Virus record (IMG/VR): IMGVR_UViG_3300010361_000001
Length of the DNA stretch: 64,000 nucleotides
Direction: 5' to 3' (one strand)
Source of the DNA: an uncultured virus (IMG/VR IMGVR_UViG_3300010361_000001)
Lineage: Duplodnaviria > Heunggongvirae > Uroviricota > Caudoviricetes
Shown: positions 968-63,058 of the stretch, piece by piece
Position numbering within the stretch: position 1 is the first letter of the stretch
How the letters are laid out: each line of letters begins with the position of its first letter
Notes under the pieces: generated by a model
Database searches by the model: none
Told to the model about the DNA's origin: nothing
Seen by the model: only the letters and a program-made list of their open reading frames with translations
Translations under genes and position numbers: made by a program

Positions 968-2059
968 ATGACCACCAAGCTAGAGACTGTCCAGACCGTC
1001 ATGGCCGAGATCAACAAGGAGCTTGGCCCCGAGACCGTGGTGTGGGGCAGCCAGATCCGGTACTCGGACCTGCCCCGGATCTCCTCCGGGAGCTTCGCCC
1101 TGGACATGGCCCTGGGGGGCGGCTGGCAGGTCAATGCACTGCATGAGATCTATGGGGACGAGTCCAGCGGGAAGACCACGGTCATCCTCAAGACCATCGC
1201 CACCCAGCAGGCCCTCAACCCGGACCACACCACCTTCTGGATCGCTGCGGAGGAGTTCGTGCCCTCCTGGGCGCGTGACCTGGGCTGCGACACCGATCGG
1301 ATCATGGTCATGCAGACCAACATCCTGGAGGAGGCGTGCAACGCCGCCATCCGGGTACTAGAGAGTAGAACCTGCGACGTTCTGGTCTTCGACAGCCTGC
1401 CTGCCTTATCACCGATCAGCGAGTCGGAGGGCACCATGGACGACACCCAGGTGGGCCTCGCCGCCAGGCTCCTGGGCAAGTTCTTCCGGAAGGGCTACAC
1501 GGCCATGAAGCGCAGCCTGGTGGAGGACGACCGGGCCGTCACCATCTTCATGGTCAACCAGTGGAGGGAGCGCATCGGCGTCCTCTTCGGTGACCCCCGC
1601 ACCACCCCAGGTGGGAGGGCCAAGAACTACTGGATGACCAGCCGTGTCGAACTCAAGCGTGACGAGTGGCTGACTGAGGGTGACCGGAAGAACCAGCGGA
1701 AGGTGGGCATCACGGTCAAGGCGCGTACCGCCAAAAACAAGAGTTTCCCGCCAGAAAAGGTCGCCGTCTTCGACTTCTACTTCGACAACAACGAGGTGGG
1801 GATCACCCCTGGTCAGTACGACTCAGCCAAAGAGTTGGTGACCCAGGCCCTGGCCCTGGACCTGTTCCGGATCAAGACCAGCTACTACTACCTGGGTGAC
1901 GAAAGCTGGCACGGGCGGGCGGCGCTAGAGGAGCAGGTCAGGTATGACTTGGGGTTGCAGCAGAGGCTCCGAGATGCTATTCATGACCAAATCACGAAGG
2001 GCAAGCGCCCGGAGGAGCCACGCCCGTCCCCCCGGCGTCTAGCGAGGAGTAAGAAGTGA
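968..2059 (+). CDS. recA: RecA-like recombinase
   Basis: ISSGSFALDMALGGG, Walker A EIYGDESSGKTT, Walker B VLVFDS, NQWRERIGVLFGDPRTTPGG; SD AAGGAG. Confidence 0.95.
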   Translation: MTTKLETVQTVMAEINKELGPETVVWGSQIRYSDLPRISSGSFALDMALGGGWQVNALHEIYGDESSGKTTVILKTIATQQALNPDHTTFWIAAEEFVPSWARDLGCDTDRIMVMQTNILEEACNAAIRVLESRTCDVLVFDSLPALSPISESEGTMDDTQVGLAARLLGKFFRKGYTAMKRSLVEDDRAVTIFMVNQWRERIGVLFGDPRTTPGGRAKNYWMTSRVELKRDEWLTEGDRKNQRKVGITVKARTAKNKSFPPEKVAVFDFYFDNNEVGITPGQYDSAKELVTQALALDLFRIKTSYYYLGDESWHGRAALEEQVRYDLGLQQRLRDAIHDQITKGKRPEEPRPSPRRLARSKK

Positions 2060-2658
2060 GGGCGCCCAAGCGGCTCCTGTTGTCACGTCAGCAGGAGAGA
2101 AAGGGCATGCGGAGATTTGGAGGGCAGCAGTCGCCACGTTCTGGTGCGGGTTGGAGTCGAAAAAACGACGGTCGCACAGACTGGGAACTTGTCGAGTTCA
2201 AGCGTACAGATAACCGGAGTGTCATCACCCTCCGGCATGCAGACCTCGACGCTCTCTATCGCCACGCAGTGGTCGAGTCTCGCGTCCCTGTTCTCGGATT
2301 TGAGCTATGCGGAGACAACTTCGTGGTCCTCCGGGAATCGGACTACCACGAACTGGTTCTTCATCGACAACAACCAGACCCTCCCGGCGATCTACGAGAG
2401 GGAGGCCCCCACCTGGCTGAGCCAGGCGAAGTGCCGGGGCCTGCCCGGAAACCTGTTCTACGCCGAGTACCAACACAACAACTCTCAGGTCCAGGAGGCG
2501 AAGAGCGTCTGCCTAGGAACCCACCCGGACCACCCAGGCCGCTGCCCGGTCCTGGAGGCTTGTCTCGACTACGCGATAGCCAACGGGGAGAGGTACGGCG
2601 TTTGGGGAGGAACCAGCGAAAGGGAGCGGCGCCGGATCAAACGCCAACGGCATCGTGA
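2056..2658 (+). CDS. putative Holliday junction resolvase (PD-(D/E)xK) with long C-terminal extension
   Basis: RSGAGWSRKNDG...LVEFKRT motif directly after RecA; ~100 aa tail overlaps WhiB. Confidence 0.65.
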   Translation: MRAPKRLLLSRQQERKGMRRFGGQQSPRSGAGWSRKNDGRTDWELVEFKRTDNRSVITLRHADLDALYRHAVVESRVPVLGFELCGDNFVVLRESDYHELVLHRQQPDPPGDLREGGPHLAEPGEVPGPARKPVLRRVPTQQLSGPGGEERLPRNPPGPPRPLPGPGGLSRLRDSQRGEVRRLGRNQRKGAAPDQTPTAS

Positions 2659-2866
2659 GGCAGCTATCCAGGCAGGGAAGATCATCGACATCACGGCGCG
2701 TGATCGACCCGAACCTGCGGATGCTCCTGGACACGACCAAGCGGGACACCCGACTCCTTGGGGATGTTCAAAGATTGCTCTTGCAGCCTGGCGCCGAGAA
2801 CGGGCTGAGAGACGACGCTCTGCATCCATCGGAGATCAGCCATTCGGACTGGTGTCCCAGGGCTAG
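2300..2866 (+). CDS. whiB: WhiB-family transcription factor (start uncertain)
   Basis: W..QAKC...FY...AKSVC...CPVLEACLDYA...YGVWGGTSERERR; four Cys plus GVWGG. Confidence 0.9.
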   Translation: MSYAETTSWSSGNRTTTNWFFIDNNQTLPAIYEREAPTWLSQAKCRGLPGNLFYAEYQHNNSQVQEAKSVCLGTHPDHPGRCPVLEACLDYAIANGERYGVWGGTSERERRRIKRQRHREAAIQAGKIIDITARDRPEPADAPGHDQAGHPTPWGCSKIALAAWRRERAERRRSASIGDQPFGLVSQG

Positions 2867-3692
2867 CTACTACCGCATGGCCGGGGTACCAGCCAGGGAG
2901 GCCCTACCCTCTCTGCACTGGCGCATGCAGATGGTCTTCGATGAGGGCAAGGAGATCCACGGCAAGTGGCAGAAAAGGCTGTGGGATCTCGGTCGCCTGT
3001 GGGGCACGTTTTATTGCCAGGAGTGCCATTACGCCTTCCCAGCCCTGGCTCCCCAGGAGTGTGAGAAGTGCCACCGGGGGCGCCAGGCCCTGAGCTACCA
3101 CGAGATCCCGCTGATCAACCACAACCTCCACATGGTCGGTCACGCCGATGGCGGGGTGGAGGACAGCCTGGTGGAGATCAAGAGCGTGGGCCTGGGGACA
3201 CTGCGCTTTGAGGCCCCTCAGCTAATCGCTGAACACACCTACAAGCTGAACATCAACGGAAAAACCAGGAACTTCCTGGACTACGACGGGCTGTGGGACG
3301 CGATCCGCAGGCCCTTCCCCTCACACGTACGACAGGGCGACTTTTACTGCTTCCTGCACCGGAAGATCAGAGAGGTGATCTTCATCTACGAGTGCAAGTG
3401 GAACCAAAAAGTCAAGGAGATGATCGTCCAGTATCGAGAGGAACGCATCTCCGATCGACTAGACCAGTGCAGCAGGGTCGCCATGGCCCTCCAGGGTGGC
3501 AACGTACCGAAGTGCCCCTTCGGCGGATGTGCTGACTGTCAACGCTATGAGGAGAAGAATGACCGCAACGGAGGAAGAGTCCTCGTCCGGAGGACGGCGC
3601 CTGTCCCGGAAGCCACCACTGACCATCAGGGAAGCCCTGGCGAAAACGGTGGGAGGCCAGCGACGCGACGCCTTCAAAGACTTGGGGATTGA
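2655..3692 (+). CDS. Cas4-like PD-(D/E)xK exonuclease
   Basis: LHPSEI..CPRASYY, GHADG, VEIKS, C-terminal CPFGGCADC. Confidence 0.8.
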   Translation: MRQLSRQGRSSTSRRVIDPNLRMLLDTTKRDTRLLGDVQRLLLQPGAENGLRDDALHPSEISHSDWCPRASYYRMAGVPAREALPSLHWRMQMVFDEGKEIHGKWQKRLWDLGRLWGTFYCQECHYAFPALAPQECEKCHRGRQALSYHEIPLINHNLHMVGHADGGVEDSLVEIKSVGLGTLRFEAPQLIAEHTYKLNINGKTRNFLDYDGLWDAIRRPFPSHVRQGDFYCFLHRKIREVIFIYECKWNQKVKEMIVQYREERISDRLDQCSRVAMALQGGNVPKCPFGGCADCQRYEEKNDRNGGRVLVRRTAPVPEATTDHQGSPGENGGRPATRRLQRLGD

Positions 3693-4125
3693 CGAGCCGC
3701 CACCCCCCGACACCAAGGTACCGATCCTGGAAGCCGACATTGACGACCTGACCGACAAGCAGTTAATGAACCTGTTCGTACAGTTCACCCGGTGGACTGA
3801 TTTTTTCCAGTACCAGCTAGCCATCGAGGAGATCTACGAGAACCATGCAGAGGCAGAAATCCGAAAGCTGGAAGGGCTGTTCCTCACACGCAATCGTCCT
3901 ACAAAGGCGAGCGAAGCGATCACCTGGGTGCGGGCGGAAATGGAGTCGGACTCTGAGATTCGTGCCGCTAGGGAAGCCCTCATGCTGTACTACGCGAGGC
4001 GCAAGCTGAAGCAGATGCTCTTCCAGTCGGCTGAGCGGGATGCTGCCGTGGTTTCCCGGGAACTGACCAGGAGGACCGATGCAAAAAACCCTGGGTACCG
4101 CCGAGCAGACAGGGGGGCGCCATGA
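3559..4125 (+). CDS. hypothetical helical protein (recombination module)
   Basis: ATG after SD GAGGAG; overlaps the exonuclease tail by 134 nt. Confidence 0.7.
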   Translation: MTATEEESSSGGRRLSRKPPLTIREALAKTVGGQRRDAFKDLGIDEPPPPDTKVPILEADIDDLTDKQLMNLFVQFTRWTDFFQYQLAIEEIYENHAEAEIRKLEGLFLTRNRPTKASEAITWVRAEMESDSEIRAAREALMLYYARRKLKQMLFQSAERDAAVVSRELTRRTDAKNPGYRRADRGAP

Positions 4126-5084: not shown

Positions 5085-5680
5085 GCGACATCTACATCGG
5101 CATCGACCCTGGCAGTAAGAACTGCGCCATGGTCTCCTGGTCCCCACAGGCGGGCCTGGTGACCGCCTGGAAGCCCAAGCCACCCATGCCCACCGGGGTA
5201 CTGCGGCTCCGCAAGCTCATGGTGGACATCGCCAACGAGTTCACCAAGATCGCCGCTCACCAGCCAGGGGGGGTCATCAAGCTCGTCGCCATGGAGGCGT
5301 ACTCCATGGCCGAGAAGTACGGCCAGCACGCCTCCGGGGAGGTGGGCGCCGCCATCAAGCTGACCATCCTCTCGCTATTCGACAGCGATGACCGGCGTGG
5401 CTTCCCGGTCCTGGTGGCCCCCCAGCAACTCAAGAAGTTCGTCTCCGGCAAGGGCAACGGGCGCAAGGACATGATGCCCAAGGAGATATACAAGCGCTGG
5501 GAGATGGACTTCAACGACCCGAATATCGCTGAGGCGTACGCCCTGGCTCGTGTAGCTCACGCCGTGGACGCCCGCCCTGAGGGCCTCACCCAGTTCCAGC
5601 TAGACGTCATAGCGGCCCTGGACGGGCGTACGGAGTGGATCCCGATCGCTCAGCGCCGGTTGGTCAGGGTGGGCCGGTAG
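5081..5680 (+). CDS. ruvC: RuvC-like resolvase
   Basis: YIGIDPG, VAMEAY, PQQLKKFVSGKGNGRK, NIAEAYALA. Confidence 0.85.
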   Translation: MSDIYIGIDPGSKNCAMVSWSPQAGLVTAWKPKPPMPTGVLRLRKLMVDIANEFTKIAAHQPGGVIKLVAMEAYSMAEKYGQHASGEVGAAIKLTILSLFDSDDRRGFPVLVAPQQLKKFVSGKGNGRKDMMPKEIYKRWEMDFNDPNIAEAYALARVAHAVDARPEGLTQFQLDVIAALDGRTEWIPIAQRRLVRVGR

Positions 5681-5701
5681 CCCAGCCCTAGGCTTGGGGG
5701 C

Positions 5702-6220
5702 ATGCCTGATCAGCGCAAAGTTGGACACGCGATTCGTCGCCGCATGGGTGCTTCCTCCAGCCATCTCGGACAGGCTGGCGGTCCAGGCGGTATCTGGAGT
5801 CCTCCGTTTGCTGCCTCACCAGGAGGCGAAGCTGCACTGGCTGCGGGCGAAGCTACCGCCCAGGGCGTAGCGCAGGTTCCTATTGCAGGAGGTCGTTACT
5901 TGGGTACTGGAGGTCACATCAAGGGCGTCCCGGACACCTACGAGACCGGCACTGACACCTATGGGTACGGGTCCAGGCCCGAGATCGGTGACAGCAGCCA
6001 CTTCGTGGCCGGGGTAGCCGACACCGTCAACGAGCCTGCTCCCCCTCGTGGGCGGCTGAGTCCGGGTGAGTCGGCTGGCGCCAGGCTCACGGTCTCGCCG
6101 TCGATGAAGGTGCCGCAGGAGTCGCCGGTCCCCACCCAGGGCGGCGGCAGGCCCGTGCCGTCGACACCAGGACGCCAGGCGTCGTTCGGCGCCGGTCAGG
6201 CGGGTTCCTATGCCGGGTGA
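5702..6220 (+). CDS. Gly/Pro-rich hypothetical protein, probably leaderless
   Basis: TAGGCT -10 hexamer 7 nt before ATG. Confidence 0.65.
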   Translation: MPDQRKVGHAIRRRMGASSSHLGQAGGPGGIWSPPFAASPGGEAALAAGEATAQGVAQVPIAGGRYLGTGGHIKGVPDTYETGTDTYGYGSRPEIGDSSHFVAGVADTVNEPAPPRGRLSPGESAGARLTVSPSMKVPQESPVPTQGGGRPVPSTPGRQASFGAGQAGSYAG

Positions 6221-6455: not shown

Positions 6456-6458
6456 TCA

Positions 6459-11540: not shown

Positions 11541-12283
11541 CCGCCGTCTTCCCCCACGCCATCAAGATCTTCCAGGTCTTCCACGACTACAGCGACATCA
11601 TTTGGGCGGTCTCGATCAACGAGTGCCACGATGAGATCCAGGCCCTGGAGTCGATGATGGGGATCAACCCCTTCCAGTCGACGCCCTATACCACCGTGGG
11701 CGGCGCCATCCAGGATCTCTACCTCAACAAGGCCCCGAGTAACCACACCCACATACACCGAAACCTGCTGGACGACACCCAGGGCAACGACCATCCCCAG
11801 TACATACTCACCACCGGGCAACCGGGCTTCACCGGCCCAGTAGGTGGCAAAGCTGGGGGCAGCCCTGCGGACCTCGTGCCACTCAGCCAGCTTCAGAGCA
11901 TGGGCTATCAGAACGCCGCCCAGGTACAAGCTGCTGTTAACGCTGCGCTCGCCAACCTCATGGCCGGGGCCTGGGGAGGGCCACCGCTGGCCGGAGCCGC
12001 CTCCTCCCCCGCCTGGAGGATCCAGGGGGGCCTCAAGTCGGGCCTGACCGATGGCAGTGGCCGGATCTCAGTCGCGTTCAACCCCGGCTATGGACGCTGC
12101 GTCCAAGCGTTCAGCGCCACCAAGCTGCCACCCTCAGGAGGAGGACCGCCCTACAACTGGATCGAGGCCCAGCTAACCCTGGTGGGTGTCTCCGGCTCCG
12201 GCGCCACCGTCCAGTTCTCACATGACTACTCCTGGCAGCCGAATCAATGGGTGACCTTTACGTGGATCGCCATAGGTAACTGA
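11537..12283 (+). CDS. putative tail/baseplate protein
   Basis: TTG overlapping upstream TGA, SD GGAGG; NDHPQY motif shared with the next ORF. Confidence 0.7.
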   Translation: MTAVFPHAIKIFQVFHDYSDIIWAVSINECHDEIQALESMMGINPFQSTPYTTVGGAIQDLYLNKAPSNHTHIHRNLLDDTQGNDHPQYILTTGQPGFTGPVGGKAGGSPADLVPLSQLQSMGYQNAAQVQAAVNAALANLMAGAWGGPPLAGAASSPAWRIQGGLKSGLTDGSGRISVAFNPGYGRCVQAFSATKLPPSGGGPPYNWIEAQLTLVGVSGSGATVQFSHDYSWQPNQWVTFTWIAIGN

Positions 12284-13143
12284 TGCCAACGCCTCCCCCG
12301 GTCCCAGCCGCCCAGCGCTACCCCCTGGCGATTCGTGACTTCGTCACCTACCAAAACCAGCCTGGTGACAACAACCACATCGTCCAGAGTTCCACCGGCC
12401 CGGTAGACCTGACTCTCGACGGGGCAGTGGTCACGCGTGACCTGCACACCGAGATCATCAGCCTGGAACAGACGATCGGAGCCAACCCGTTCATGGTGCC
12501 GGGGAACCCCACCATCGGGAAGTCCATCCAGTGGCTACACAGCAACCTGTCCCCCGGTCATGTCGGGCCTCGTGGCTCCATCGACCCTCTGCCGCCTCCT
12601 TCCCATAGCCACGTCCACCAGCAGATGTCGGGCCGAAACGGTGACGACCACCCCCAATACATGCTCGTTAACGGCAGTCGGCCCTTTATCAACCCCGTCA
12701 CGGCGCCCGCTGCACAGAACGGTCACGAGTTGATCACACTGGCCCAGGCCAAGGGCGCAGGGCTGACCTGGCAACAGGTGCAGAGCATCATCCAGTCCTC
12801 ATTGACCAACGCCATGGATGGTGGTGCCAGCGGACCCATCCTGGGACCGGACAACCGCCGCTGGAAGATGGCGGGCGGGTACTTCAACGGCTACACCGAC
12901 GAAAATGGCAACGCCTATGTCGACTTCAGCGCCGCCCAGTTTTCCGGACTGCTGAGCTTCATCTACATGAAGATGCCCTTCCCCGGCCAGAGCATGCTGG
13001 GCTGGTACAACTACCAGTACATGGAGGACCAGTTGATCCTCCTGGGCCTCTCCAACACGGGGGCGCTCATCCAGTTCATCGAGGACATCGTGGTGGACCG
13101 GCGAGCCAACGTGGCCTGCACCTGGATCGCACTGGGGATCTAG
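12283..13143 (+). CDS. putative tail/baseplate protein
   Basis: paralog of 11537 ORF (HSHVH...DDHPQY). Confidence 0.7.
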   Translation: MPTPPPVPAAQRYPLAIRDFVTYQNQPGDNNHIVQSSTGPVDLTLDGAVVTRDLHTEIISLEQTIGANPFMVPGNPTIGKSIQWLHSNLSPGHVGPRGSIDPLPPPSHSHVHQQMSGRNGDDHPQYMLVNGSRPFINPVTAPAAQNGHELITLAQAKGAGLTWQQVQSIIQSSLTNAMDGGASGPILGPDNRRWKMAGGYFNGYTDENGNAYVDFSAAQFSGLLSFIYMKMPFPGQSMLGWYNYQYMEDQLILLGLSNTGALIQFIEDIVVDRRANVACTWIALGI

Positions 13144-16100
13144 TGGGCGTCTACGGCATCGACTTCTACGGGGTGGGCCGCTTCGGTCCTGACCCGGCCC
13201 TGGTGCGGCCCGACTTCTCGGTAGCTCCCTTCGACTTCCTGCCGCTCGACTACCAGTCCCTCCACCTGACCTGGAAGAACCCGGTCTCAGCCGACTGCAC
13301 CCAGTTGCGACTGGTTCGCAATGGCAGCAACCTGCCCCAGGACGAGAACGACGGCGCTCAGGTCTTCGTGCTGTCCAACTACGCCACCACCAACACCAAT
13401 GACGCGATCGTCGTAGGAGCTATCACCAGCCTGACCGACGTCCACCTAGCCGGTGGCTTCCAGTACTACACGATGTTCGGCTGGTCAGCGAGCAGTCAGG
13501 TTTGGGTCCGCTGCACCGACCTGATCGCCCTGGTGCCCCTCCCCTGGGGCTACGGCTGGCGCATGTACAACCTCATGCCCATGGCCTATCGGGACGCCGA
13601 CATCATCCTGGTGGACCCATACAACCCCTGGTCTACTGAGGGGCTGCCAGGCGGCTCTCCCCCGCTCCAGCGCTACCTCCAGCTAGTCGGCTTCCAGTTC
13701 GACTTCATCCGCACCGAGATGGAGTCCCTGATGTCGATCAACGACGTAGCGAACTGCTCCGGCGCGTTGCTCCCTCTCATGGCTCAGCAGCTTGGGCTGG
13801 TACATGAGCCTGAGGTGGGCATGCAGCAGGAGCGCCAGCTAGTGCAGAACGCTGTCCACCTGTACAAGCAGAAGGGCAGCCCACGGGGCATCACCGAGAT
13901 GGCTTCGATCCTCACGAGCTATCCGGCCACCCAGCTTGTCCACCATGGCTATAACGAGCTTCTCTGCCTTGATGACGGCGTCATGGCCGACGCCATCGGC
14001 ACCTGGCAGGTCTGGCCTCCCCGGATCCCCACCGACCCGATCACCTGGAACGCGAACCCAGGGGGCTACACCGGCACCTACACCAACGTCTTCGCTCCCC
14101 TGGCAGGCCAGGCGGCTGGTGAAGCTCTGACCTGGATCCCCAACCTGCTGAGCGGCTCGATCGCCAACATGACCAACCCGCTGGAGACCTTCGGCACCCC
14201 CAGCACCTGGCCCTCCTCGATCCAGCCGCCCTATCAGAACAGTGGCATGCGAGTCCAGGGGACCGGCGCCGGGGACTACAACCTGACCACCAGCGGGATC
14301 CCCATCACCGACTTCTTGTCCCAGTACGGGGGTCCGGGCAACATCACCTGGCGGATCCAGGTTTGGTCAGCGACGGCCCGCACGGTCTGGCTGTCAGTGT
14401 GGGGTGATGTCGGCTCCGGCACCAGGGTCCAGGTACTACCCGAGCAGAGCTTCGTGGAGACGGCAGGCCACTGGACCACCATGACCATCACGGGGACCAT
14501 GAACCCGTACCCGAACTCGCTGCCAGGGGCGAGCGCGCCCACCGGGCCTGCGAGCTACTACCGGCTCTTCCCGCAGATCCGCATCGCCGGAGCGGCTGCC
14601 AACGAGGCCCACTACGTCACCATCTGCGGGCTGTGGCCCTGCACCCCGGCGCAGATCGGGATCGACACCCCGACCTACGACTACCCCCGAGACATCAAGC
14701 TGCTGCTCCAGCCCCAGGCATCCAACCTGCTGACCAACACGGTCAGCACCTTCTCCAAGATCAACCCCAGCCCGCCGCCCAGCCTGCTGGGCATCGGCTT
14801 CGATGGGCTGACCAACACGGTGGACCCCAACCAGCCCTCCACCCTGAACATCATCGCAGCGGCAGCCTCCGACTTTGAGACGGGCACCACGGGCAGCTAT
14901 ATCGTCAACAACTGCACCCTGGCGAACTCGACGGCCCAGGCCAACACCGGTACCCACAGCCTCCAGATCACCTCGACGGTGATCGGCAGCGGCACCAACC
15001 GGGTCTACGTGCGCTCTCCCCGGATGGGGGCGACGTCGAATCAGGTCTACACCGTCAATGCCTACTTCCGGCCAGGTACTACGGCTCGCCAGGTGGCGGC
15101 ATACCTCGTCTTCTTCGACTCCAAGGGCAATGCCCTGAGCGCTCAGACCCCGCCCTTCCTGGTGACCGAGACGGCTGCTGCCTGGGTTGGCACCAACACC
15201 GGCAGCCCTCCCACCACCCAGGTGGCGCCCGTGGGCACCACACAGATGGAGCTTCGCCTGGAGGTCCAGTACCCCGGCGCCGTCAATGAGATCCACTACG
15301 TCGACAGCGTCTCCGTCTACTACACCAACGCCGTCGCAAGCTGCCAGATGAGCATCCGTTACGCCAGCCTGGAGGATCCTCCCAGCCTGGCACCGATCAA
15401 CGGCATCGGTGCCCTCCAGGTGACCGCCATTGGGCCAGGAGCGACCATCTGGTGGGGCAAGGTGAGCGTCTGGTCCCCGCCATCGACCATCCCTGCCGGG
15501 TGGTTCGCCTCCAGTAGGCCCACCCCGCCTCCGGCCTACCCTGCTGGCCCAGTCAAGACACTGACCAACGACTGGTTTTTTGGAGCGGTGCAGGGTTACA
15601 ACCCCAGGAACTGGGTGGATCCGGTGTGGGGTTGGTTCATGACCAACCAGACATTTTTTGGCACCGGCAGCGCTGTGGTCAACGGCATTTGGTTCGCCGC
15701 CCCACCCCAGCCGCCTATCTACGGAAGCAACCTGAGCGCGTACAATGTAACGGCGGGTCAGCCCTTTAACTTCAGCATCTACGCCCAGTACATGACCGTC
15801 CAGGATCCCACCAACGCACAGATGCAGATGGGCCTGCGCTGGTACTACCCGGACGGCAACTGGATCGAGACCAGCATGACGGTGATGCTGACCGCCAACT
15901 ACGTTCGCTACAGCATGCCGGATCCAAATAATCTGGCCTCGTACTACCTGGGCGAGCCACCACCGGAAGGGTCGACGCCGAATGACCCCAATCCACCCAC
16001 CGGTATTTTGCCGACGCTGGTCTACCCCTTCGTGCGGTTCACAGCCGCTCAGAACGCTCAGTTCCTCCTGAACTCGGCCATGCTGTCACCGGGCCTGAGC

Positions 16101-16827: not shown

Positions 16828-17781
16828 ATGGCAAGAGGATCGAAAGCCCAGGAAGGTGTGACCATCGGATTCCTGGGTACTGGGGAGATGGAGGTGGACC
16901 CCGCCACCGACCTGATCGAGCAGTTCATCAACGAGTCGGTCAAGCCGGAGGAGCCAGCCAAGTTCATCTTCCCCCTGACTAGTGCGGAGTTCTCGGACTC
17001 CATGGACCGGCTGGCCGAGATGGCGAGGAAGTCCAAGATCGCCTACGAGTGCATCGTCACCCCTGAGGACAAGAAGCGCAGGGCCTTCCAGGAGGTCATC
17101 AACGGGGCCGTCCACACCCACACGGTCACCGACATATGGACGCAGATGGAGCAGATCCTGGTGGACGCGCCCAAGTCCGCTCTCTTCGTCCTGTGGGACG
17201 ACAAGAGGGACGACGAGCTTCAGGAGATCTGCTTCAAGTTCGTGGATGCCGACATCAACGTCCTCGATCTCACCAACAACCTCGTGCGGCTGGGCCGTGA
17301 AGAGGGCGATGAGGGTGAGGCCCCTGACGAGCCGGAGGAAGAGGACGAGGGCACCGACGAGGCCGAAGAGGTGCGCGAGCTTGAAGCTGAGGCTGTCGTC
17401 TCGGTCTTCACCAGGGCGCAGCTTGAGAAGATGAGCCACTCCGACGTGAAGGACGTGGCCGTGGGCCTGGGCCTGCCGCCCAGGAAAGCCAGGGAGAACA
17501 TGATCGTCGCCATCCTGGAGGCTCAGGGTTCTCCTGAAGCCGTCTCAGAGGCCCCTGAGCGGCCACAGGCGGTCACAGCCGCTCCTGTGGACGTGGATGC
17601 CCTATCTGAGGCTCTGACGGCCTTCAGGAAGGGCCTGGCCGATGACCTGGAGGAGTTCCGCCTGGCCTTCGCCAGCACCGTCGAGGGGATCCTCTTCAAC
17701 GTCGCCCCTGAGAAGCCCATGGAGGTCGAGGACGAGCCTGCTCCTGAGCCGAGCGGGCGTCGTCGTCTCGTTCGCCGGTAA
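16828..17781 (+). CDS. acidic protein with Rho-N/SAP-like helical domain
   Basis: FTRAQLEKMSHSDVKDVAVGLGL...MIVAILEAQ; ends RRRLVRR. Confidence 0.7.
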   Translation: MARGSKAQEGVTIGFLGTGEMEVDPATDLIEQFINESVKPEEPAKFIFPLTSAEFSDSMDRLAEMARKSKIAYECIVTPEDKKRRAFQEVINGAVHTHTVTDIWTQMEQILVDAPKSALFVLWDDKRDDELQEICFKFVDADINVLDLTNNLVRLGREEGDEGEAPDEPEEEDEGTDEAEEVRELEAEAVVSVFTRAQLEKMSHSDVKDVAVGLGLPPRKARENMIVAILEAQGSPEAVSEAPERPQAVTAAPVDVDALSEALTAFRKGLADDLEEFRLAFASTVEGILFNVAPEKPMEVEDEPAPEPSGRRRLVRR

Positions 17782-18050
17782 TGCCCCGCAGGCTGGTTCG
17801 CAGCCAGGAGCCAGAGCCTGAGGAGCCGGAGCTTCCTCCGGAGGAGGATCAGGAGGGGGATGAGACTCCCCCGGAGGAACCCTTGCTCTACAACGCTGAA
17901 GCTGCCGCCCGCATCCTGGGCGGCATCAGCACGTCCATGCTCTACCGGTACGTCCAGAACGGTGAGCTACACCCGGTCAAGCTGGGCAGCCGCACCCTGT
18001 TCACCAGGGAGGAACTGACCCGCTTCGTCAAGGCGAAACAGGGCGGATGA
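17781..18050 (+). CDS. excisionase-like HTH protein
   Basis: LYNAEAAARILGGISTSMLYRYVQNGELHPVKLGSRTLF. Confidence 0.85.
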   Translation: MPRRLVRSQEPEPEEPELPPEEDQEGDETPPEEPLLYNAEAAARILGGISTSMLYRYVQNGELHPVKLGSRTLFTREELTRFVKAKQGG

Positions 18051-19980: not shown

Positions 19981-20431
19981 CTCCTACCTCCTTGACGTGC
20001 GCTGCACAGATCACCTGGACAAGTTTGCAGGTTTCGGCGTGGCCCGCCAGGGCCTCTTCCTCTGTGCTGTAGCGCCACTGCTCCAGGTCTAGGTCGCCGC
20101 CGAAGATCATGGTCTCAAAGATCTTGATGGGGCGATCCGGCCACCAGTTGTGGTCCAGCCCTAGCCATACCGTGGACACCTCGACGGGCGCGTCACCCAT
20201 GATGTAGACGTCCTTGGCGATGACCTTGTAGTCATAGTCAGCCAGGTAGTCGTTCGCCACCACCATGGGGATGCGCTTGCCCTGCTTGTCATACCAGTGA
20301 TCAGTACCAAACGGATTTAGTTCAGCCCAGGTGTGAGGGCCGTCCTCGATGTTCAGGGACGTGTGGATACGCCACCAAAGACCCCTACGTTCCTCCCAAC
20401 GCCAGGGACCGGGCAGGTTGCTCAGGGGCAC
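19958..20431 (-). CDS. hypothetical phage protein
   Basis: VSTVWLGLDH...FETMIFGG...RYST.EEA.AGH. Confidence 0.7.
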   Translation of the reverse strand: MPLSNLPGPWRWEERRGLWWRIHTSLNIEDGPHTWAELNPFGTDHWYDKQGKRIPMVVANDYLADYDYKVIAKDVYIMGDAPVEVSTVWLGLDHNWWPDRPIKIFETMIFGGDLDLEQWRYSTEEEALAGHAETCKLVQVICAAHVKEVGDGEGNGG

Positions 20432-49154: not shown

Positions 49155-49295
49155 TCATCCATCCAAGGCACCCGGCACATCCTCAGGTTCGGGGTTCCTG
49201 GCCTGCTCTTGAGGATTGGCAGCGCTCTGCTCCTCATGGGTGTCAACGAAGCTGCTGAACTGCTGAGAAGAAAGGATCTGATGCTTCTGACTCAT
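49155..49295 (-). CDS. small protein with LSSQQF tag (46 aa)
   Basis: MSQKHQILSSQQFSSF...; SD AGGAGG; translated by hand. Confidence 0.65.
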   Translation of the reverse strand: MSQKHQILSSQQFSSFVDTHEEQSAANPQEQARNPEPEDVPGALDG

Positions 49296-52590: not shown

Positions 52591-53003
52591 TGGCGCCTCC
52601 GGGGTAGGCGGTCCCCAGTCGACCTGGCCCAGGCTTCTCCTGAGTCAGTGCGATGCTCCGAGTGCCTGGGCTGGGTCACACCACGAGTGTCTCCGGCGAT
52701 CCGGCGAGCCTCCCCCAACATGGCTGTGGCGATGCCCTGACGCTGATGCTCCGGGTTCGTGTACAGCCCCAGGATCTCCCCGGAGCGGTGGTGCCAGGAG
52801 AGCGAGGCAGCCGGGGCCTGGGCGGGGTCAGCCGATCGGGGATCCCGGAGCCGCTCCCCTGGGTGCATCTGTGCGTACTCCGACTCCAGCTTCTCCCTGG
52901 GCCAGACCTCAACAGTGTGGTAGGGCTTGCCGCCCATCTCCCGATGAGTCGAGCCGTGGAACAGGAAGCCGAACTGCTCAGTGTTCAGGGCGCGCTGGCT
53001 CAT
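52587..53003 (-). CDS. GNAT acetyltransferase
   Basis: ILGLYTNPEHQRQGIATAML, TDSGEAW. Confidence 0.8.
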   Translation of the reverse strand: MSQRALNTEQFGFLFHGSTHREMGGKPYHTVEVWPREKLESEYAQMHPGERLRDPRSADPAQAPAASLSWHHRSGEILGLYTNPEHQRQGIATAMLGEARRIAGDTRGVTQPRHSEHRTDSGEAWARSTGDRLPRRRQ

Positions 53004-53648
53004 TCAAAACAGCTTGCCTTGTGTGTAACGGGGCACCACGCTGACCCTGGGATGTGGCCCTAAACGCTCAACTCGATATTGCCTATTACGACCGAGAAGG
53101 ATCTCCTGGTCCGCATTCCCTTCACGTCGGCCCTCAGTCATCCTCCGGTTGACTTCCATCGTTGGCGCGCTGGCTTCAGTGCCTTTGGGGATACGCACCT
53201 CGACGGTCTCACCCTCATGACCGGCGTAGCTGGCCGCCGTGCGATGGAGCAGCGACGTCGAGCCGAAGCCCTCGTCACTGTAGACGTCACCCACCTTTCT
53301 CCCTGCCAGGATCGACTTCGGCTGACCCCGGAAGGCCGTCGTATTGACCTTCACATGACTGCCAGCAATCGACTTATCAATGCCCTCGATAACCGGGGCG
53401 ATCTGCTTCATGAACTCCGGAGGAGCGTCCTTGTGTCGGATGGCAGAGTTGATGCCTGCTGAACTCATGACATACGAGCCTTCGTGTTCCGTAGGCTCCA
53501 CCGAAGACTCGACATTCTTGCCTATCCAGTCCCTGGCCGACTGCCGTTGAGCGATGGCCTCTGGATTGAGCTTGCGTTCCGCAAAGGGTGGCGGGTTCGT
53601 CGTCTGCCATGGTTCCACGGGGAACTGCTGGGAGCTTAGGACGGTCAT
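53004..53648 (-). CDS. VIP2/Alt-like ADP-ribosyltransferase (R-S-E)
   Basis: INSAIR, AFRG, GFGSTSL, IPKGT, DQEILL. Confidence 0.85.
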   Translation of the reverse strand: MTVLSSQQFPVEPWQTTNPPPFAERKLNPEAIAQRQSARDWIGKNVESSVEPTEHEGSYVMSSAGINSAIRHKDAPPEFMKQIAPVIEGIDKSIAGSHVKVNTTAFRGQPKSILAGRKVGDVYSDEGFGSTSLLHRTAASYAGHEGETVEVRIPKGTEASAPTMEVNRRMTEGRREGNADQEILLGRNRQYRVERLGPHPRVSVVPRYTQGKLF

Positions 53649-54703
53649 GGGCCGTACTTAGGGTTGAGCAGGGCACGCCTGACGTTGACCCTCTTCTGCT
53701 TGGGCGGCTTCGGCTCCGGCGACTGGGTCTCCTCAAACTGGCCTCTGGTGTAGGGACCACCCAGGCGAGACAGGTACGTCGTACGGTTGGCATTAAGGGC
53801 GCGCCCGGCCTTTACGTCCCTGGGATCAGGCCGGTAGTGGGTGACCATGTAGCGGTCAGCCCGAGCCTCCTCAGCCGGTCCAGCCGGTGACTCCGAGACG
53901 TGATGGCCGATCTCGTGGATCAGGGTGGCCTCCGACTGCTGGCGTTGCCGGTGACCAGCCTTGGGCACGAAGGTGGGCTTGCCAGCCTGCCGAAGGGCGG
54001 CTGACGGCTTGTCCATGTCCTCGATGAGCCGTTGACCCTTCTGCTCCCCACGCCCAGGTGTCTTGGCCGGTACCGGGTACAGCCGCACCTTGCCGGTGCC
54101 CTGGCCCCTCTTGCCGGTGTAGAGGCCCAGGACGTTCTTCATGCTGCCGGTGCCCAGCTTGCGCTCTGCCGGGATCTCGATGGACTGGAGACCCTCCAGG
54201 TGCTGGGCTGGCACCGTCGAGCGGGCGATGGCCTCCCGCATCATCCGCTCCCCGTGGCCCCCAGGCTGGTAGAAGGGGTGATCGAGGGAGGCAGCCATCC
54301 CCCGGTTGGTCTGCTGGGCCACCTGGGTGGTGCCCTTGCCTCCACAGGACCAGCACGTCCCAGGAGCGGTGGCGACCACCCCGTTGTGGGTGATGCCCCT
54401 CTCCTTCCAGTGGGCCTGGGTGACTGGGCTGGTCAGCATGTCCCCGGTGACCCGGAAGGTGGGGTTCTCTCCCCGGCCCCCACAGTGGGGGCACGGCTCC
54501 TTGGTGGGCGGGCCTGGCACCTCCCCGTAGGTGGGGATGCTGACGTTGGGCGTGGCGGCGCGTACCTCCCGCATCCGCTCCGGCGTGTAGCCACGCTGGT
54601 AGCGGATGTCCGAGCGGGGCTTGACCTGCCTCTGGTCGAAGAGGGAGGGCTGCTCCTTGAGGTGTGCCCTAGGATCCGGGCGGGGGTCGAAGAGGCTGGT
54701 CAC
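53645..54703 (-). CDS. zincin-like metallopeptidase with CxxCxGxG finger
   Basis: TLIHEIGHH...EEARAD; CPHCGGRG, CWSCGGKG. Confidence 0.7.
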   Translation of the reverse strand: MTSLFDPRPDPRAHLKEQPSLFDQRQVKPRSDIRYQRGYTPERMREVRAATPNVSIPTYGEVPGPPTKEPCPHCGGRGENPTFRVTGDMLTSPVTQAHWKERGITHNGVVATAPGTCWSCGGKGTTQVAQQTNRGMAASLDHPFYQPGGHGERMMREAIARSTVPAQHLEGLQSIEIPAERKLGTGSMKNVLGLYTGKRGQGTGKVRLYPVPAKTPGRGEQKGQRLIEDMDKPSAALRQAGKPTFVPKAGHRQRQQSEATLIHEIGHHVSESPAGPAEEARADRYMVTHYRPDPRDVKAGRALNANRTTYLSRLGGPYTRGQFEETQSPEPKPPKQKRVNVRRALLNPKYGP

Positions 54704-54949
54704 TCACTCTTCCTCTCCACCCTCTTCACTCCACGGCATCATGTTGCGACCGCCCCCCTCACCACCGAACTCGGTGCCAGACGGCATGCCCCGAACCGTG
54801 GTGAGGTCGTTGGAAAATGAGGGGCGAAACACGTTCGACGTCATGTGCTGAATACCACGAACCCTGGTGGTCAGTTCGTCGGCATTCCCTTGTTCGATCA
54901 TGCTGCGTTCGGTGTTGAACTGCTGGTTCGACAAAGCTCCGGCACTCAT
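54704..54949 (-). CDS. small protein with LSNQQF tag
   Basis: MSAGALSNQQF. Confidence 0.65.
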   Translation of the reverse strand: MSAGALSNQQFNTERSMIEQGNADELTTRVRGIQHMTSNVFRPSFSNDLTTVRGMPSGTEFGGEGGGRNMMPWSEEGGEEE

Positions 54950-56592: not shown

Positions 56593-57135
56593 ATGCCTGA
56601 GAGCGAGTCCATCCGGGCTGAAGCGCGCCGGAGGGGCGTCAGCTTCGCCAAGGTCAAGGGCGAGCGGCTCTACCAACAGAAGGGATCCACCTACCGTCAG
56701 GAGCGGGAGGAACGGTTCCGGTCACAGAAAATCAGGAGCATCCGCCAGGCTCAGGCTGCGGGCGTCGAGGAAGAGATACCCGAGTGGGTCCAGGCGGATC
56801 TCCCGTTCCCCACCGAGACGACGGGACCAGACGCCACTGAGCCACATGGCATGCAAGGCCCGTTCGGTCCCAGTCCGATGCCCGACTGGGACTTCTACTG
56901 GCCCACTCGGACCATCAACCCACCCAGGCCCCGGACCCTCCAGGCCCGGTATTCCAGGACTCAGCGACGGCTGGAGGTCATCTTCCGGGACGGCACCCCC
57001 TGGCACTACGACGAGGTGCCTCCGGGCATCTGGACTCGGTTCAAGCGCGTGGAGTCCCCAGGCCGCTACATCAACTCGGTGCTGAACGGCTATCCATACG
57101 GGAGAGGCGGATGGGGCAGCGTTGTCGGGGAGTAG
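56593..57135 (+). CDS. KTSC domain protein
   Basis: RY....RLEVIFRDG..WHYDEVP...W..F....SPGRYIN. Confidence 0.8.
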   Translation: MPESESIRAEARRRGVSFAKVKGERLYQQKGSTYRQEREERFRSQKIRSIRQAQAAGVEEEIPEWVQADLPFPTETTGPDATEPHGMQGPFGPSPMPDWDFYWPTRTINPPRPRTLQARYSRTQRRLEVIFRDGTPWHYDEVPPGIWTRFKRVESPGRYINSVLNGYPYGRGGWGSVVGE

Positions 57136-57314
57136 AGAAAGAGCCACCCAAGCCGAAGTTGCCGTCGAGGATCGACCAGATCCTGGCTGAGATCGACAAG
57201 GCCCTAGAGGAGAACGAGGCCCAACCTCTTGGAGATCCACCCCGACGACTACGACGATCCGGAGGAAAATCTGTGGGTACTACCCAACCTCCCGGACCCG
57301 GCCTCAGTTCCTGA
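57111..57314 (+). CDS. Pup-like peptide
   Basis: KLPSRIDQILAEIDKALEEN resembles Pup KLTEETDDLLDEIDDVLEEN. Confidence 0.55.
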   Translation: MGQRCRGVEKEPPKPKLPSRIDQILAEIDKALEENEAQPLGDPPRRLRRSGGKSVGTTQPPGPGLSS

Positions 57315-57585: not shown

Positions 57586-58405
57586 GGCTTGGCAGAAGCT
57601 CACTGGGGAACCGGTGAAGGTTGGGCGGGCCGGAGTGATCCCAGTGTTTGACAACGGCGAGTGGGCCTTTTATCGAAATACAGCTATCGTCTGGCCTGGC
57701 GTAGAGACTGCGGCAGACCCGGCCAAGGTGGAAAAGCTAAGGCAGAACGTCTTGGCTCTACTGGCTGCTTTTCCTGAGACCCTGCCCGAACTAGAGAAGC
57801 TGGGGATCCGAGTCAAGGGACTCCTCAACAAGCCCATCAAGACCGAAGCTGACGTTAAACAGTGGGCTGAGGCGTTCTTCAACACCGGGCCGACTACATC
57901 GGTTCCTCTTCATGTCCAAGACGCCATGTCCCTGGCCTACGACGACATCAAGATCCAGGTGCGGATGGGCAGGCACCCTGCCTTCGTCCTACCAGTGGGA
58001 TCGAGGGACTCTCACGTCAGACAGACTGTCGACTTCACCGTGCCTGGCTCCAAGCTGCGGTACGGGCCTCGACATGAGTTCACCAAGGCTGCCTTCTCCC
58101 TCCAGGATCCTCCACAGGGCCGTACAGAGGCGGATAGGCGTGCCCAGGCCAAGGACGTCCTCGACGGGGCTGTACGAGGCCGTGGGAGGCCCAGGAAGGA
58201 CGGTCTGATGCCTGGGTCCAGAGAGGCCATGGCTGCCGACAAGAGGCGGCAGCGAGAGCTAGAGCGAGAGCGAGCCAAGCGAGTGAGGGCACGAGAGCGG
58301 AAGGCCAAGCCGGTCGAAGAGCTAGCGACCATCACTGAGCTACCTCAGCCACAACCACGTCGTCTCGTCCGGATAGGCAAGACGGCAAGTGGCGAATCCG
58401 CTTAA
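57572..58405 (+). CDS. hypothetical protein with AT-hook-like GRGRPRK
   Basis: basic C-terminus including PRRLVR. Confidence 0.7.
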   Translation: MNVTEAWQKLTGEPVKVGRAGVIPVFDNGEWAFYRNTAIVWPGVETAADPAKVEKLRQNVLALLAAFPETLPELEKLGIRVKGLLNKPIKTEADVKQWAEAFFNTGPTTSVPLHVQDAMSLAYDDIKIQVRMGRHPAFVLPVGSRDSHVRQTVDFTVPGSKLRYGPRHEFTKAAFSLQDPPQGRTEADRRAQAKDVLDGAVRGRGRPRKDGLMPGSREAMAADKRRQRELERERAKRVRARERKAKPVEELATITELPQPQPRRLVRIGKTASGESA

Positions 58406-59036: not shown

Positions 59037-59365
59037 TTGCGTGGCTTCCTGACTAGTCGACGTGGCCCGTTGCTGGGCGGCTCAGGTGGCACGTTATGCG
59101 ACCAGTAGCAGGTCCGGAACGACTTGACTGCCCGGAGCAGAGCCGCATAGGAAGAGATAGCTTTGGCTGCGGGGAAGCGATGCTTGGCTTCCTTCTCCAG
59201 TAGCTCCCACAGTGCCCAAAAAGCACCCTGGTCCAGTTGAACCAGCATGGTGGGCGGGCCGTCAGCCGTCAGCTTCTCCCCGGTGTAGTTGGCGACCGGG
59301 GGCGGGCCAAGGTAACGGGGGAAGTCATCCTCGTAGGTGTGGACTTCAGGAGTGAACTGAGTCAT
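59033..59365 (-). CDS. hypothetical protein, leaderless
   Basis: TATGCT-N6-ATG; ends PRRLVRKPRK. Confidence 0.7.
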   Translation of the reverse strand: MTQFTPEVHTYEDDFPRYLGPPPVANYTGEKLTADGPPTMLVQLDQGAFWALWELLEKEAKHRFPAAKAISSYAALLRAVKSFRTCYWSHNVPPEPPSNGPRRLVRKPRK

Positions 59366-60950: not shown

Positions 60951-61019
60951 GTACATGGTGGCAGGGAGAAATCCCTGCCACCTACCTGCGTTCGCTCATC
61001 CATGCGATAGAATGAGACC

Positions 61020-61469
61020 ATGATGCAACTGCTACCACAGCCAAACTATGACCACTACCTACTCGACTCCCAGGACTACTGGGCCAGGCTGCGAGGCCAG
61101 CCTGAGCCTCCTGCCCCCACCTATCGGTGGGTCAACGGGCGTGCGGTGCTGGGTCGCTACGTCGATCCCTTCGGCGCCCAGGGACTCATGGAAGAGAGCA
61201 AGAACGTGTGGACCAAGTGGTACACCACGTTCCTGATCTCAGCCATCGTCGGCCCCCTCATCTGCGGGGTCGATGCGGTCTTCGTCTTCCTGGTCCTGCC
61301 CATCTTCGCTGTGTGGTACCTGATCAAGCGCAACAAGCAGCGGGCGCTCTACGACGAGTACTACGCCATCGCCCAGGAGATCCAGCGCACCGGCCAGCCC
61401 CAGTGGGTGCCCTTCAACAAGGACCGGCTGGCCTTCATCGAGCGTCACCCTGAGGCGGTGTGGCCCTGA
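61020..61469 (+). CDS. membrane protein, leaderless
   Basis: TAGAAT-N6-ATG; two hydrophobic helices. Confidence 0.65.
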   Translation: MMQLLPQPNYDHYLLDSQDYWARLRGQPEPPAPTYRWVNGRAVLGRYVDPFGAQGLMEESKNVWTKWYTTFLISAIVGPLICGVDAVFVFLVLPIFAVWYLIKRNKQRALYDEYYAIAQEIQRTGQPQWVPFNKDRLAFIERHPEAVWP

Positions 61470-62464
61470 TGGCGAGCGTCTACCGACCCATCGACGTGCT
61501 GGAGCAGCAGGTCGATCTCATCCGCTTCTGGAAGCACAGCATCCACCGGCACAGCTTCGCTGACGCCTTTGAGTTCCAGATCAGACAGTTCCGCTCCACC
61601 ATGGGCGAGGCCGTCGACACCTTCCTGGTGAGCAGGCTCGACAACGCTGAGACCTTCTATGTGAGGAATCAGATCATCGACCGGCTCTGGCACTTCACCG
61701 ACGTGTACGAGGCCCACGAACACGAGACCATCGAGTACCAGGACTTGCCCTGCCCCAGGGGGTTCATCTACCTGGAGAAGCCCATCCACCTCTTCGACAC
61801 GCGTGGCCGGGTCTGCTCAGTCAAGGCCATCCTGTGGTCCGAAGAGCGGGGTGGGGTGAGCATCGTGGAGTTCAGCGATGCCCGTGACCCACTGGATGAG
61901 ATCAACACCCTGGACTACAACGGCACCGGCAAGCCCACCTACGAGACCTGCGAGCTACCCCTGTTCCACATCATGCCGTGGGCCTGGGGGAAAAAGATCA
62001 GGAACCTGACGGCGGATGATTTCCGCATGCAGGAGCTAGGTGACCCCAACGACACCACCCCCGAAGAGCGGGACATGATGGTCCAGAACCTGCCCTCCAC
62101 GGTGCAGAGCATGGACCGGTTCAACGGGTTCCTGATCAGCCTGTGGGAGTTCGTACAGCAACAGATCCCCCATCGCATGCGGGCTGACCGTCCCATGCTG
62201 AAGCGTCTCCAGAGGGCACACAGCCCCCTCTCAGAGGTAACCGTGGTCGACCTGAGGGCGGAAGATCCCCCGCCCAGGCACGTCGACCCGGACCATGTTC
62301 CACAGACTGTCCTGTGGACTCATCGCTGGCGGTCCAGGGAACACAAGCGCCGCTGGATCGACAAGCACGGCAACTACAGGGAGACCACCGTCTCCGCATC
62401 AGTCAAGGGGCCAGAGCATCTGCCCCTCATAGAGAAAGATCGGATATTCAATGTCAAGCGCTAA
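61469..62464 (+). CDS. hypothetical phage protein, paralog of 20431 ORF
   Basis: WTHRWRSREHKRRW...KGPEHLPL. Confidence 0.75.
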   Translation: MASVYRPIDVLEQQVDLIRFWKHSIHRHSFADAFEFQIRQFRSTMGEAVDTFLVSRLDNAETFYVRNQIIDRLWHFTDVYEAHEHETIEYQDLPCPRGFIYLEKPIHLFDTRGRVCSVKAILWSEERGGVSIVEFSDARDPLDEINTLDYNGTGKPTYETCELPLFHIMPWAWGKKIRNLTADDFRMQELGDPNDTTPEERDMMVQNLPSTVQSMDRFNGFLISLWEFVQQQIPHRMRADRPMLKRLQRAHSPLSEVTVVDLRAEDPPPRHVDPDHVPQTVLWTHRWRSREHKRRWIDKHGNYRETTVSASVKGPEHLPLIEKDRIFNVKR

Positions 62465-62672
62465 CACACAGATGAAGCAGAAGATCGTGAGCAGGGTGAG
62501 GCTGGGCGACAGCCGGGAGGTGCGTATCACGCGCATCCCCAACGGCACCAGCGACGACTACATCAGGGTCGGTATCAACCTGCTCCCCAACGGTGAGAAC
62601 ATGAGCGGGGCGGTCTTCCCCGAGTCCGCACTGGACGAGGTCATCGCCGCCCTGAGGAAGGTGCATAGCTGA
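62451..62672 (+). CDS. possible PC4-like ssDNA-binding protein
   Basis: beta-rich REVRI...YIRV...GAVFP..ALDEVIAAL. Confidence 0.45.
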   Translation: MSSANTQMKQKIVSRVRLGDSREVRITRIPNGTSDDYIRVGINLLPNGENMSGAVFPESALDEVIAALRKVHS

Positions 62673-63058
62673 TGGCTAATGAACCCAACGACGAGCTACT
62701 GGAGATGAGGTGCCGCTGCTGCGGCGTGTTCATGGGCCACCGACGCCGCATAGGACGGTTCGTTTTTTGGTGCAGCGAGGACTGTGCGGACTCCCCCATG
62801 GCTAAGTGGCAGGAGTCCCAGCCCAGGGATGAGGCCATCGTCGCTATGTTCCTAGATGGCAAGGGAATCATGGAAATATCTCGTGATCTTGAGGACTGGC
62901 CCTACCAGTACATCCAGCAGACCCTGACCAGGAGGGGCCTCACAGAGCGGCGCCTGGTGGTCAAGGAACACACCAGGCTGGACTCTGAGGGCAAGGAACG
63001 CACGGTCAAGGAGCATGTGCTGGCACCACGCAGGCTGGTGCGTAGCAAGGCGAGCTAA
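62672..63058 (+). CDS. Zn-finger + HTH protein
   Basis: CRCCG, WCSEDC, RDEAIVAMFLDGKGIMEISRDL; ends PRRLVRSKAS. Confidence 0.7.
   Translation: MANEPNDELLEMRCRCCGVFMGHRRRIGRFVFWCSEDCADSPMAKWQESQPRDEAIVAMFLDGKGIMEISRDLEDWPYQYIQQTLTRRGLTERRLVVKEHTRLDSEGKERTVKEHVLAPRRLVRSKAS

Follow-up and report, generated by a model that had tools for sequence, protein, structure and literature searches.

Why should enzymes of recombination, transcription-factor-like proteins and small proteins with no mutual homology carry the same five residues close to one of their ends? The question is raised by a stretch of 64,000 nucleotides (the window) from an uncultured virus of the Caudoviricetes (IMG/VR record IMGVR_UViG_3300010361_000001), in which a sequence-only reading had reported the peptide RRLVR near a terminus of six non-homologous proteins and had interpreted it as a short linear docking signal. 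Our analysis of the window and its relatives indicates a real, clade-wide peptide motif that is under selection. A short linear motif docking onto one reader protein of the phage recombination-replication centre is our best reading, with a probability of about 0.5.

Copies of the peptide and the proteins that carry them

Six exact copies of RRLVR are present inside called genes of the window, each no more than 15 residues from a terminus, and their coordinates and codons agree with the sequence-only reading. A six-frame search of the window obtained seven copies in total, the seventh (44319-33, minus strand) falling in a stretch of 30 codons with no called gene. By chance, the 117 called genes should hold 0.035 copies in all and 0.008 no more than 15 residues from an end, and a null based on tail composition gives 0.019, against six observed; the earlier estimate of well below one chance copy is thus upheld (0.008-0.035). 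Furthermore, RRLVR is the top-ranking 5-mer of the window proteins, occurring in six of them, while the best 5-mer in 200 shuffles occurred in at most four. Non-coding frames yielded one RRLVR in 108,554 amino acids in the window and five in 97,775 amino acids in the relative G002, the latter showing that shadow frames are able to yield the motif. The variants previously listed beside the exact copies were all located (at 2033, 3576, 3595, 3666 and 57243). The copies and variants in the window are as follows:

2033..2047, plus strand: RecA tag; 41 of 54 homolog tails tagged; the coupled gene at 2056 has its ribosome-binding site in the final Arg codon of the tag
3576..3590, plus strand: RVLVR, first copy of the exonuclease, just past the folded domain; shares bases with the beginning of the 3559 gene, which is read in a different frame
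3595..3609, plus strand: RRLSR, N-terminal region of the UvsY-like protein (3559-4125); tagged in 17/20 close and 0/19 distant homologs
3666..3680, plus strand: RRLQR, exonuclease C-terminus, dual-coded over a conserved UvsY-like stretch; 20 of 22 homologs
5654..5668, plus strand: RuvC tag; 19 of 19 homologs, 18 exact
17761..17775, plus strand: RRLVR, C-terminus of an acidic SLOG-fold protein ending at 17781 (start probably 16828); 11 of 11 tails with at most one mismatch
17787..17801, plus strand: RRLVR, residues 3-7 of an HTH_17 (helix-turn-helix) protein (17781-18050); seven of nine homologs have the tag, two do not
57243..57257, plus strand: RRLRR, 67-amino-acid open reading frame (57111-57314) with a Pup-like helix (57174-57215); retained by G003 and G011 but not by G005 and G006
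58358..58372, plus strand: AT-hook protein tag; 8 of 10 tails with at most one mismatch
59048..59062, minus strand: tag of the 59033 open reading frame; 8 of 8 tails with at most two mismatches, mostly RKLVR; coupled start downstream
63029..63043, plus strand: tag of the zinc/helix-turn-helix protein (Zn-HTH); 5 of 10 tails with at most one mismatch, several RVLVR, more distant tails tagless

Several of these proteins had to be reidentified. The label Rho-N-like for the protein ending at 17781 is not backed by any Pfam family; its structure model matches YpsA (Z 11.1) and DprA (Z 9.1) and also shows an acidic linker and a small domain of three helices, so that it is named here as a SLOG-fold protein. 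An Atlas search with it gave no match, and its net charge in the clade ranges from -32 to -49. The label Pup-like for the 57111 frame comes down to a sub-threshold helix of TIGR03687 (14.8 bits, cut-off 41.45), which covers model positions 4-19 of 33 and does not reach the C-terminal conjugation end. Homologs of this frame occur in G003, G005, G006 and G011, with a weak one in G015, and its product is a candidate mimic that might bind the proteasome ATPase. The UvsY-like assignment of the 3559 product is a lead: its top Atlas match scores 0.96 and PF11056 is found on 12% of the members of that cluster, and no Pfam or PDB sequence match was obtained. The Cas4-like exonuclease spans about 2700-3692. 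In RuvC, the linker ahead of the tag varies in length and sequence and the tag stays constant.

About ten unrelated proteins carry the tag in the tagged genomes, which belong to an uncultured group of soil phages, and these carriers are DNA-recombination and DNA-binding proteins. The recombination module contributes RecA, the UvsY-like protein, a single-stranded DNA-binding protein (SSB) of gp32 fold, the Cas4-like exonuclease, RuvC and the YpsA/DprA-like SLOG protein; the HTH_17 protein, the AT-hook protein, a Cys-rich protein and an unknown protein of 110 amino acids are further carriers. All carriers to which a function can be assigned act on DNA. Among the 80 families present in five or more of the 11 tagged genomes, 13 have any tagged member and 67 have none, the latter including helicase, primase, polymerase and loader (homologs of annotated genes of BRock) as well as capsid and tail proteins; a MerR-type regulator is also without tag. 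Genes confined to a single genome can be tagged too (21564 and 22129 in G007), which suggests repeated gain of the tag.

The SSB gene lies outside the window, and SSB, helicase and polymerase were read in relatives. The model of a relative's SSB aligns with RB69 gp32 over 152 residues (Z 8.1, root-mean-square deviation 3.5), indicating the gp32 fold; PDB sequence searches with SSB and with the Pup-like protein yielded nothing useful. The tag stands at residues 2-10 in 35/35 SSB homologs, usually with a second copy (RRLxx) about 20 residues further on, and two copies are also found in the exonuclease. Residues 1-48 of SSB are unstructured in the model (predicted local distance difference test, pLDDT, 45-55, folding on binding still being possible), and the first conserved helix is at 56-66. 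SSB of the core clade has no acidic C-terminal tail.

Conservation of the motif and its distribution among relatives

The window has a GC content of 63% and 117 called genes (19,442 amino acids), with no tRNA gene. Its baseplate genes, together with WhiB, a LysM-transglycosylase and a dpdA-like gene (49400-50839), fit a contractile-tailed actinophage. The nearest cultured phages are GiJojo and BRock, with RecA identity of 38-41%. Relatives were taken from IMG/VR (14 RuvC loci, 25 RecA loci, 80 SSB loci and 19 long contigs), the near-complete tagged ones being G006 (98%) and G011 (100%), and the 11 tagged genomes form a single clade in the RecA tree (100/100). Terminal RRLxR was enriched in each of G001-G009 and G011 (3 to 7 proteins, against 0.09-0.25 expected).

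When a tag was scored as R[RK][LIV]xR among distinct homologs, it was found in 19/19 close homologs of RuvC, 35/35 of SSB, 20/23 of RecA, 20/22 of the exonuclease and 17/20 of the UvsY-like protein, and in 0/15, 4/25, 1/20, 0/18 and 0/19 of their distant homologs, respectively. A wider search with RecA gave the tag in 41 of the top 54 homologs and 5 of the next 66. Conservation of the tails in homologs, whose absence the sequence-only reading had named as refuting, is thus seen for RuvC, SSB and RecA. Among 181 tails from nine families, 145 have at most one mismatch to RRLVR and 173 at most two. The position profile is R1 95%, R2 75% (K 14%), L3 94%, V4 64% and R5 96%, computed after dropping the 8 worst tails and with the best-matching 5-mer of each tail, which inflates every position equally. 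Lys, common in the flanks, reaches no more than 1% at either position 1 or position 5. In this way, the earlier proposal stands as to a conserved peptide, but the core of the signal is R-x-L-x-R (95/94/96%) rather than exact RRLVR.

The codons tell the same story of a constrained peptide. In codon pairs at R1, L3 and R5, 38-63% differ synonymously and 0-21% non-synonymously; in the five flanking codons, compared with no gap alignment, 55-82% differ non-synonymously. Additionally, 28 terminal RRLVR peptides are encoded by 27 distinct codon strings. The claim of selection on the peptide is supported by both results, and the codon comparison shows purifying selection on positions 1, 3 and 5. Across the 11 genomes, 65/90 copies of R[RK][LI]xR lie at most 14 residues from an end, 35 of them at most 4 from the C-terminus. 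Between 0 and 11 free residues follow the tag, and the final residues are not conserved. As had been predicted, the tagged tails are disordered (pLDDT under 55 in both structure models); single-chain models leave the tagged arms unplaced and are uninformative. Losses were seen in 2/9 homologs of the HTH protein and, for the Pup-like frame, in G005 and G006.

Outside the clade, no terminal RRLxR was found in G012-G014, G016-G020, BRock or 34-50 kb stretches of GiJojo, E3, Yaboi and ChisanaKitsune, and one each was found in G015 and Cantare. The wording of the peptide shifts between genomes: G011 prefers Ile at position 3, G014, the sister of the tagged clade on the RecA tree (85/83), has RKVxR in five matching slots (SSB, RecA, a 109-amino-acid protein, a 156-amino-acid protein and the exonuclease), and G012 has (K/R)RTVRR on SSB and RecA, with the looser form (K/R)R(T/S/V)V(R/K) on the same two proteins in G012, G013 and the contig L193. 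BRock and GiJojo have an Arg-rich tail on the exonuclease only, and their SSB starts with a basic run. Long Arg/Lys tails of two other cultured phages are located as follows:

L198 (ChisanaKitsune), 11545-12288 and 20001-21107: long Arg/Lys tails
L199 (Cantare), 13564-14334 and 19992-21173: long Arg/Lys tails

A genome scan aimed at the host gave three loci, none of them a member of the tagged clade: two are Streptomyces regions and the third is a contig binned with Gemmatimonadales. The contig (L193, 109,690 bases) is probably a phage contig in a bacterial bin, and the 20 kb examined resembles a relative of G012/G013 (SSB, Pol, RecA, exonuclease). The Streptomyces regions (L194, L195) have this SSB family, the exonuclease and RuvC, with no polymerase or RecA called within 20 kb, and a 133-amino-acid protein ending in RRVRR or RRARR. 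Another terminal motif, DG.TQ, occurs on 8/184 proteins of G012 (log P -14.2, against -6.3 in shuffles) and is either another tag or a paralog family. The window, G001-G009 and G011 strongly avoid CAGCTC/GAGCTG (2 against 398 expected), CACGTG (2 against 334), CTCGAG (16 against 525) and AAGCTT (26 against 374), despite the dpdA-like gene of the window, and this avoidance may point to host restriction systems.

Possible explanations: docking, DNA binding, proteolysis and DNA-level constraint

If the tag is a docking motif, its alternating invariant residues would bind as an extended strand in one groove, two acidic pockets flanking a hydrophobic one, and a single reader would gather the tagged proteins at sites of recombination-dependent replication. 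A groove on a protein is favoured by the Arg specificity, the fixed Leu, the alternating invariance, the sharp carrier set, the apparent gains in orphan genes and the genome-wide wording. The lead candidate for the reader is the SSB filament: tentatively, the SSB core on single-stranded DNA filaments might be bound by clients that copy the N-terminal peptide of SSB itself, as the lack of an acidic C-terminal tail in core-clade SSB would allow. A complex prediction of the G005 SSB core (46-239) with a 32-residue tagged tail of the G005 AT-hook protein gave a score of 0.00 twice, its controls remaining unfolded, and is uninformative either way. The reader might as well be an untagged protein of the phage replisome, for instance the DnaB helicase, or else the acidic SLOG protein; we rate these somewhat below SSB, and a host hub would be a more remote candidate. 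The last 20 residues of DnaB include 7-11 acidic ones in ten tagged genomes, compared with 2, 4 and 6 in G016, G017 and G020; this is a weak hint of a reader, because DnaB of BRock and of G018 also reaches 7. A gene present only in tagged genomes could have been the reader, and the presence table shows many clade-specific genes and singles out none.

Could the motif be written by DNA or RNA constraints, such as ribosome-binding sites, promoters, overlapping frames or GC-rich codon bias, with the peptide as a by-product? Some copies are indeed partly constrained at the DNA level. The R5 codon of RecA is AGG in 20/25 tails, positioned as the ribosome-binding site of the coupled next gene (a coupled start is found in all 24 rows listed), the RuvC R5 codon is AGG in 10/18, and a candidate promoter lies just after RuvC, where TAGGCT (window 5689-5704, 7 bases ahead of the ATG at 5702 and retained in several relatives) may serve a leaderless transcript. 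The exonuclease tail overlaps the UvsY-like gene, and three tag slots are in overlapping frames. With the residues of the overlapping gene held fixed, the by-product chance is about 0.16 per site for the terminal exonuclease copy (21 sites, two of them really first copies), about 0.02 for its RVLVR copy (16 sites) and 0.11 for the tail of a 124-amino-acid protein that overlaps the SSB start (18 sites) and is tagged in 20/32 only; the exonuclease and 124-amino-acid-protein slots are weaker evidence because they are read over other genes. In the window, the resolvase, WhiB, exonuclease and UvsY-like genes at 2056-4125 overlap by 130-360 bases each and have long dual-coded tails, in which runs of acidic codons, read with a shift of frame, encode Arg-rich peptides from which new tags might arise. 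However, the codon-string diversity and the synonymous excess described above, together with the lack of any excess DNA word behind the tag (TGGTCAGG z 0.0; GGTCAGG z 2.6), lead us to reject a DNA-level element; moreover, the HTH, SLOG and 62672 copies overlap no other gene, and the higher-GC relatives G012-G014 and G016 have no terminal RRLxR. A by-product origin is largely refuted for R1, R2 and L3, and we regard it as very improbable overall.

Direct binding of DNA or another polyanion is a more serious rival, though we doubt it. The tag would then be a compact arginine version of the actinobacterial lysine repeats, with no protein pocket, and would lengthen residence on DNA or favour partitioning into charged condensates in which SSB and the SLOG protein take part through their acidic arms. 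Every carrier of assignable function acts on DNA, SSB and the exonuclease have two copies, the SLOG protein is strongly acidic, and lysine repeats on Streptomyces DNA-binding proteins give a precedent (PMC5714199). Other phages also fill the same slots differently: in the SLOG slot, G013 has Pro/Ala/Lys repeats and an AT-hook-like stretch and G018 an AT-hook-like stretch, and Cantare and ChisanaKitsune carry their long Arg/Lys tails on RecA and on SSB or an SSB-like protein. A generic tether, however, would tolerate Lys for Arg and would fix no Leu; polymerase, primase, helicases and the MerR-type regulator are untagged, a single five-residue unit replaces five or more repeats, and the genome-wide shifts in wording better suit a variable reader than DNA. 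Recognition of the tag by an AAA+ unfoldase or protease of the host (ClpX, ClpC1 or the proteasome ATPase), by which recombination proteins would be remodelled or cleared before packaging, appears improbable. It would account for the strict nearness to a free end at either terminus; disordered N- and C-termini are a recognition feature of ClpC1 (PMC12913811), the ClpX-binding peptide of SspB has LRVVK at its end and MuA-type motifs are basic (PMC3983244), and the Pup-like helix suggests that the phage may touch host proteolysis. Against it, the residues after the tag are unconserved, the ClpX C motif-2 consensus is unmatched, only 2/5 positions agree with LRVVK, and a double degron would be costly on an abundant SSB. 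Among 620 proteins encoded in an 800-kb sample of a Streptomyces genome, which is not the known host, C-terminal RRLxR occurred 0 times (0.72 expected), and looser forms were barely enriched (RxLVR 3 against 0.61, RxLxR 13 against 7.4). The idea that the tag copies the N-terminal strand of phage RecA is not supported (no R-x-L-x-R in the 20 RecA N-termini listed), and a Tat (twin-arginine translocation) signal, a clamp-binding motif and an AT-hook were set aside on their consensus sequences.

The docking proposal is partly supported: a short linear motif is the best reading, with its core corrected to RxLxR, some copies partly DNA-constrained and DNA binding a live rival. The ribosome-binding site in RecA, the dual-coded exonuclease slots and the replaced slots and basic tails of other phages all weigh against it, and so do the following points. 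The tagged genomes being a single clade, the homolog counts describe one lineage and non-independent events. Unbiased motif discovery beat shuffled tails in 4/11 tagged genomes only (the window, G001, G005 and G007), and RKVxR, although the top motif of G014, stays below shuffles (log P -5.3 against -6.2), so the argument from genome-wide wording is suggestive only. G016, G017 and G020 have the same SSB, RecA and RuvC families without tag, which means that the recombination module works without it. Several carriers resemble double-strand DNA regulators and are not obvious SSB clients, and no reader protein was identified in this analysis.

A broader and speculative view, which we hold only tentatively, is that large actinophages use a self-made addressing code, in which an easily gained R-x-L-x-R co-evolves with one phage-encoded reader and recruits all of the recombination machinery and certain regulators to an unenclosed replication centre; other proteins would be directed, probably to the capsid, by a separate N-terminal tag, L[SN]xxQF. 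Four proteins of the window have L[SN]xxQF, among them a GNAT and a member of the ADP-ribosyltransferase family, and it is present also in G003, G005, G006, G011, G012 and G015 (up to five proteins per relative); it presumably resembles the T4 capsid-targeting sequence of internal proteins. Proteins of its cluster, which recurs in G003, G005, G006 and G012, also have QGxLF or QPSLF, often C-terminal, which we take to be similar to the beta-clamp-binding motif.

49257-49274, 52971-52988, 53622-53639 and 54917-54934, minus strand: L[SN]xxQF
53007-53021 and 54638-54652, minus strand: QGxLF / QPSLF

Such a code would mean that short linear motifs sort proteins within a bacterial cell even where there is no phage nucleus. 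Should there be a single reader, tagged orphan genes are predicted to belong to the recombination or DNA centre, and the five residues would offer a handle on how large actinophages organise recombination-dependent replication, as well as a portable targeting tag. If the tag binds DNA directly, it would be a new minimal DNA-binding motif.

Comparison with known systems

T4 gp32 has a basic N-terminal motif, LAST (Lys-Arg-Lys-Ser-Thr, residues 3-7), that binds the neighbouring core and confers cooperativity, and its acidic C-domain serves clients (PMC12893549). The phage SSB likewise has a five-residue basic motif at the extreme N-terminus of a gp32 fold (LAST being proposed to bind the neighbour's acidic surface), and the carriers resemble the set gathered around gp32. 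However, R-R-L-V-R with its fixed Leu differs from KRKST and lacks the pattern of three basic and two Ser/Thr residues. About 45 residues separate it from the first conserved helix, the arm that bears it is disordered and often has a second copy, and it recurs on at least nine other protein families, also C-terminally. The 21-residue N-domain of T4 gp32 is largely helical; the phage SSB arm, unstructured in the model at low confidence, might still fold on binding. In T4, clients bind the acidic C-domain of T4 gp32, a domain that the phage SSB does not have.

Lysine repeats, defined by five or more repeats and by minimum contents of 10% Lys and 27% Ala, are enriched on the DNA-binding proteins of Streptomyces, and the C-terminal domain of TopA requires them to bind DNA (PMC5714199). 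As in TopA, HupS, Ku and HrdB, the phage tag forms basic terminal extensions of unrelated DNA proteins and is enriched on DNA-binding ones, and sister phages carry repeats in the same slot; the tag nevertheless consists of one or two Arg-specific five-residue copies per protein and falls outside the definition. ClpX C motif-2 is R/H-x-K/R-K-hydrophobic at the extreme C-terminus, and the XB tail of SspB is LRVVK (PMC3983244, PMC8808172). These peptides are also short, basic-hydrophobic and borne on flexible ends, including those of phage DNA proteins, but the phage tag occurs at either terminus and has no conserved end residue. A basic tag common to unrelated phage recombination proteins at either terminus is undescribed in the literature searched, in which subscription journals were mostly uncovered.

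In replication hub-docking motifs, such as clamp-binding tails and the C-terminal tip of SSB, a single short motif gives unrelated DNA proteins access to a common binding site. The phage tag resembles them in being one short motif shared by unrelated DNA proteins, and it differs in that those motifs are acidic or hydrophobic-aromatic, whereas the tag is basic and found on recombination proteins rather than the core replisome. On the docking reading, the tag acts like the known hub-docking motifs, but it does not fit the definitions of LAST, lysine repeats and ClpX motifs.

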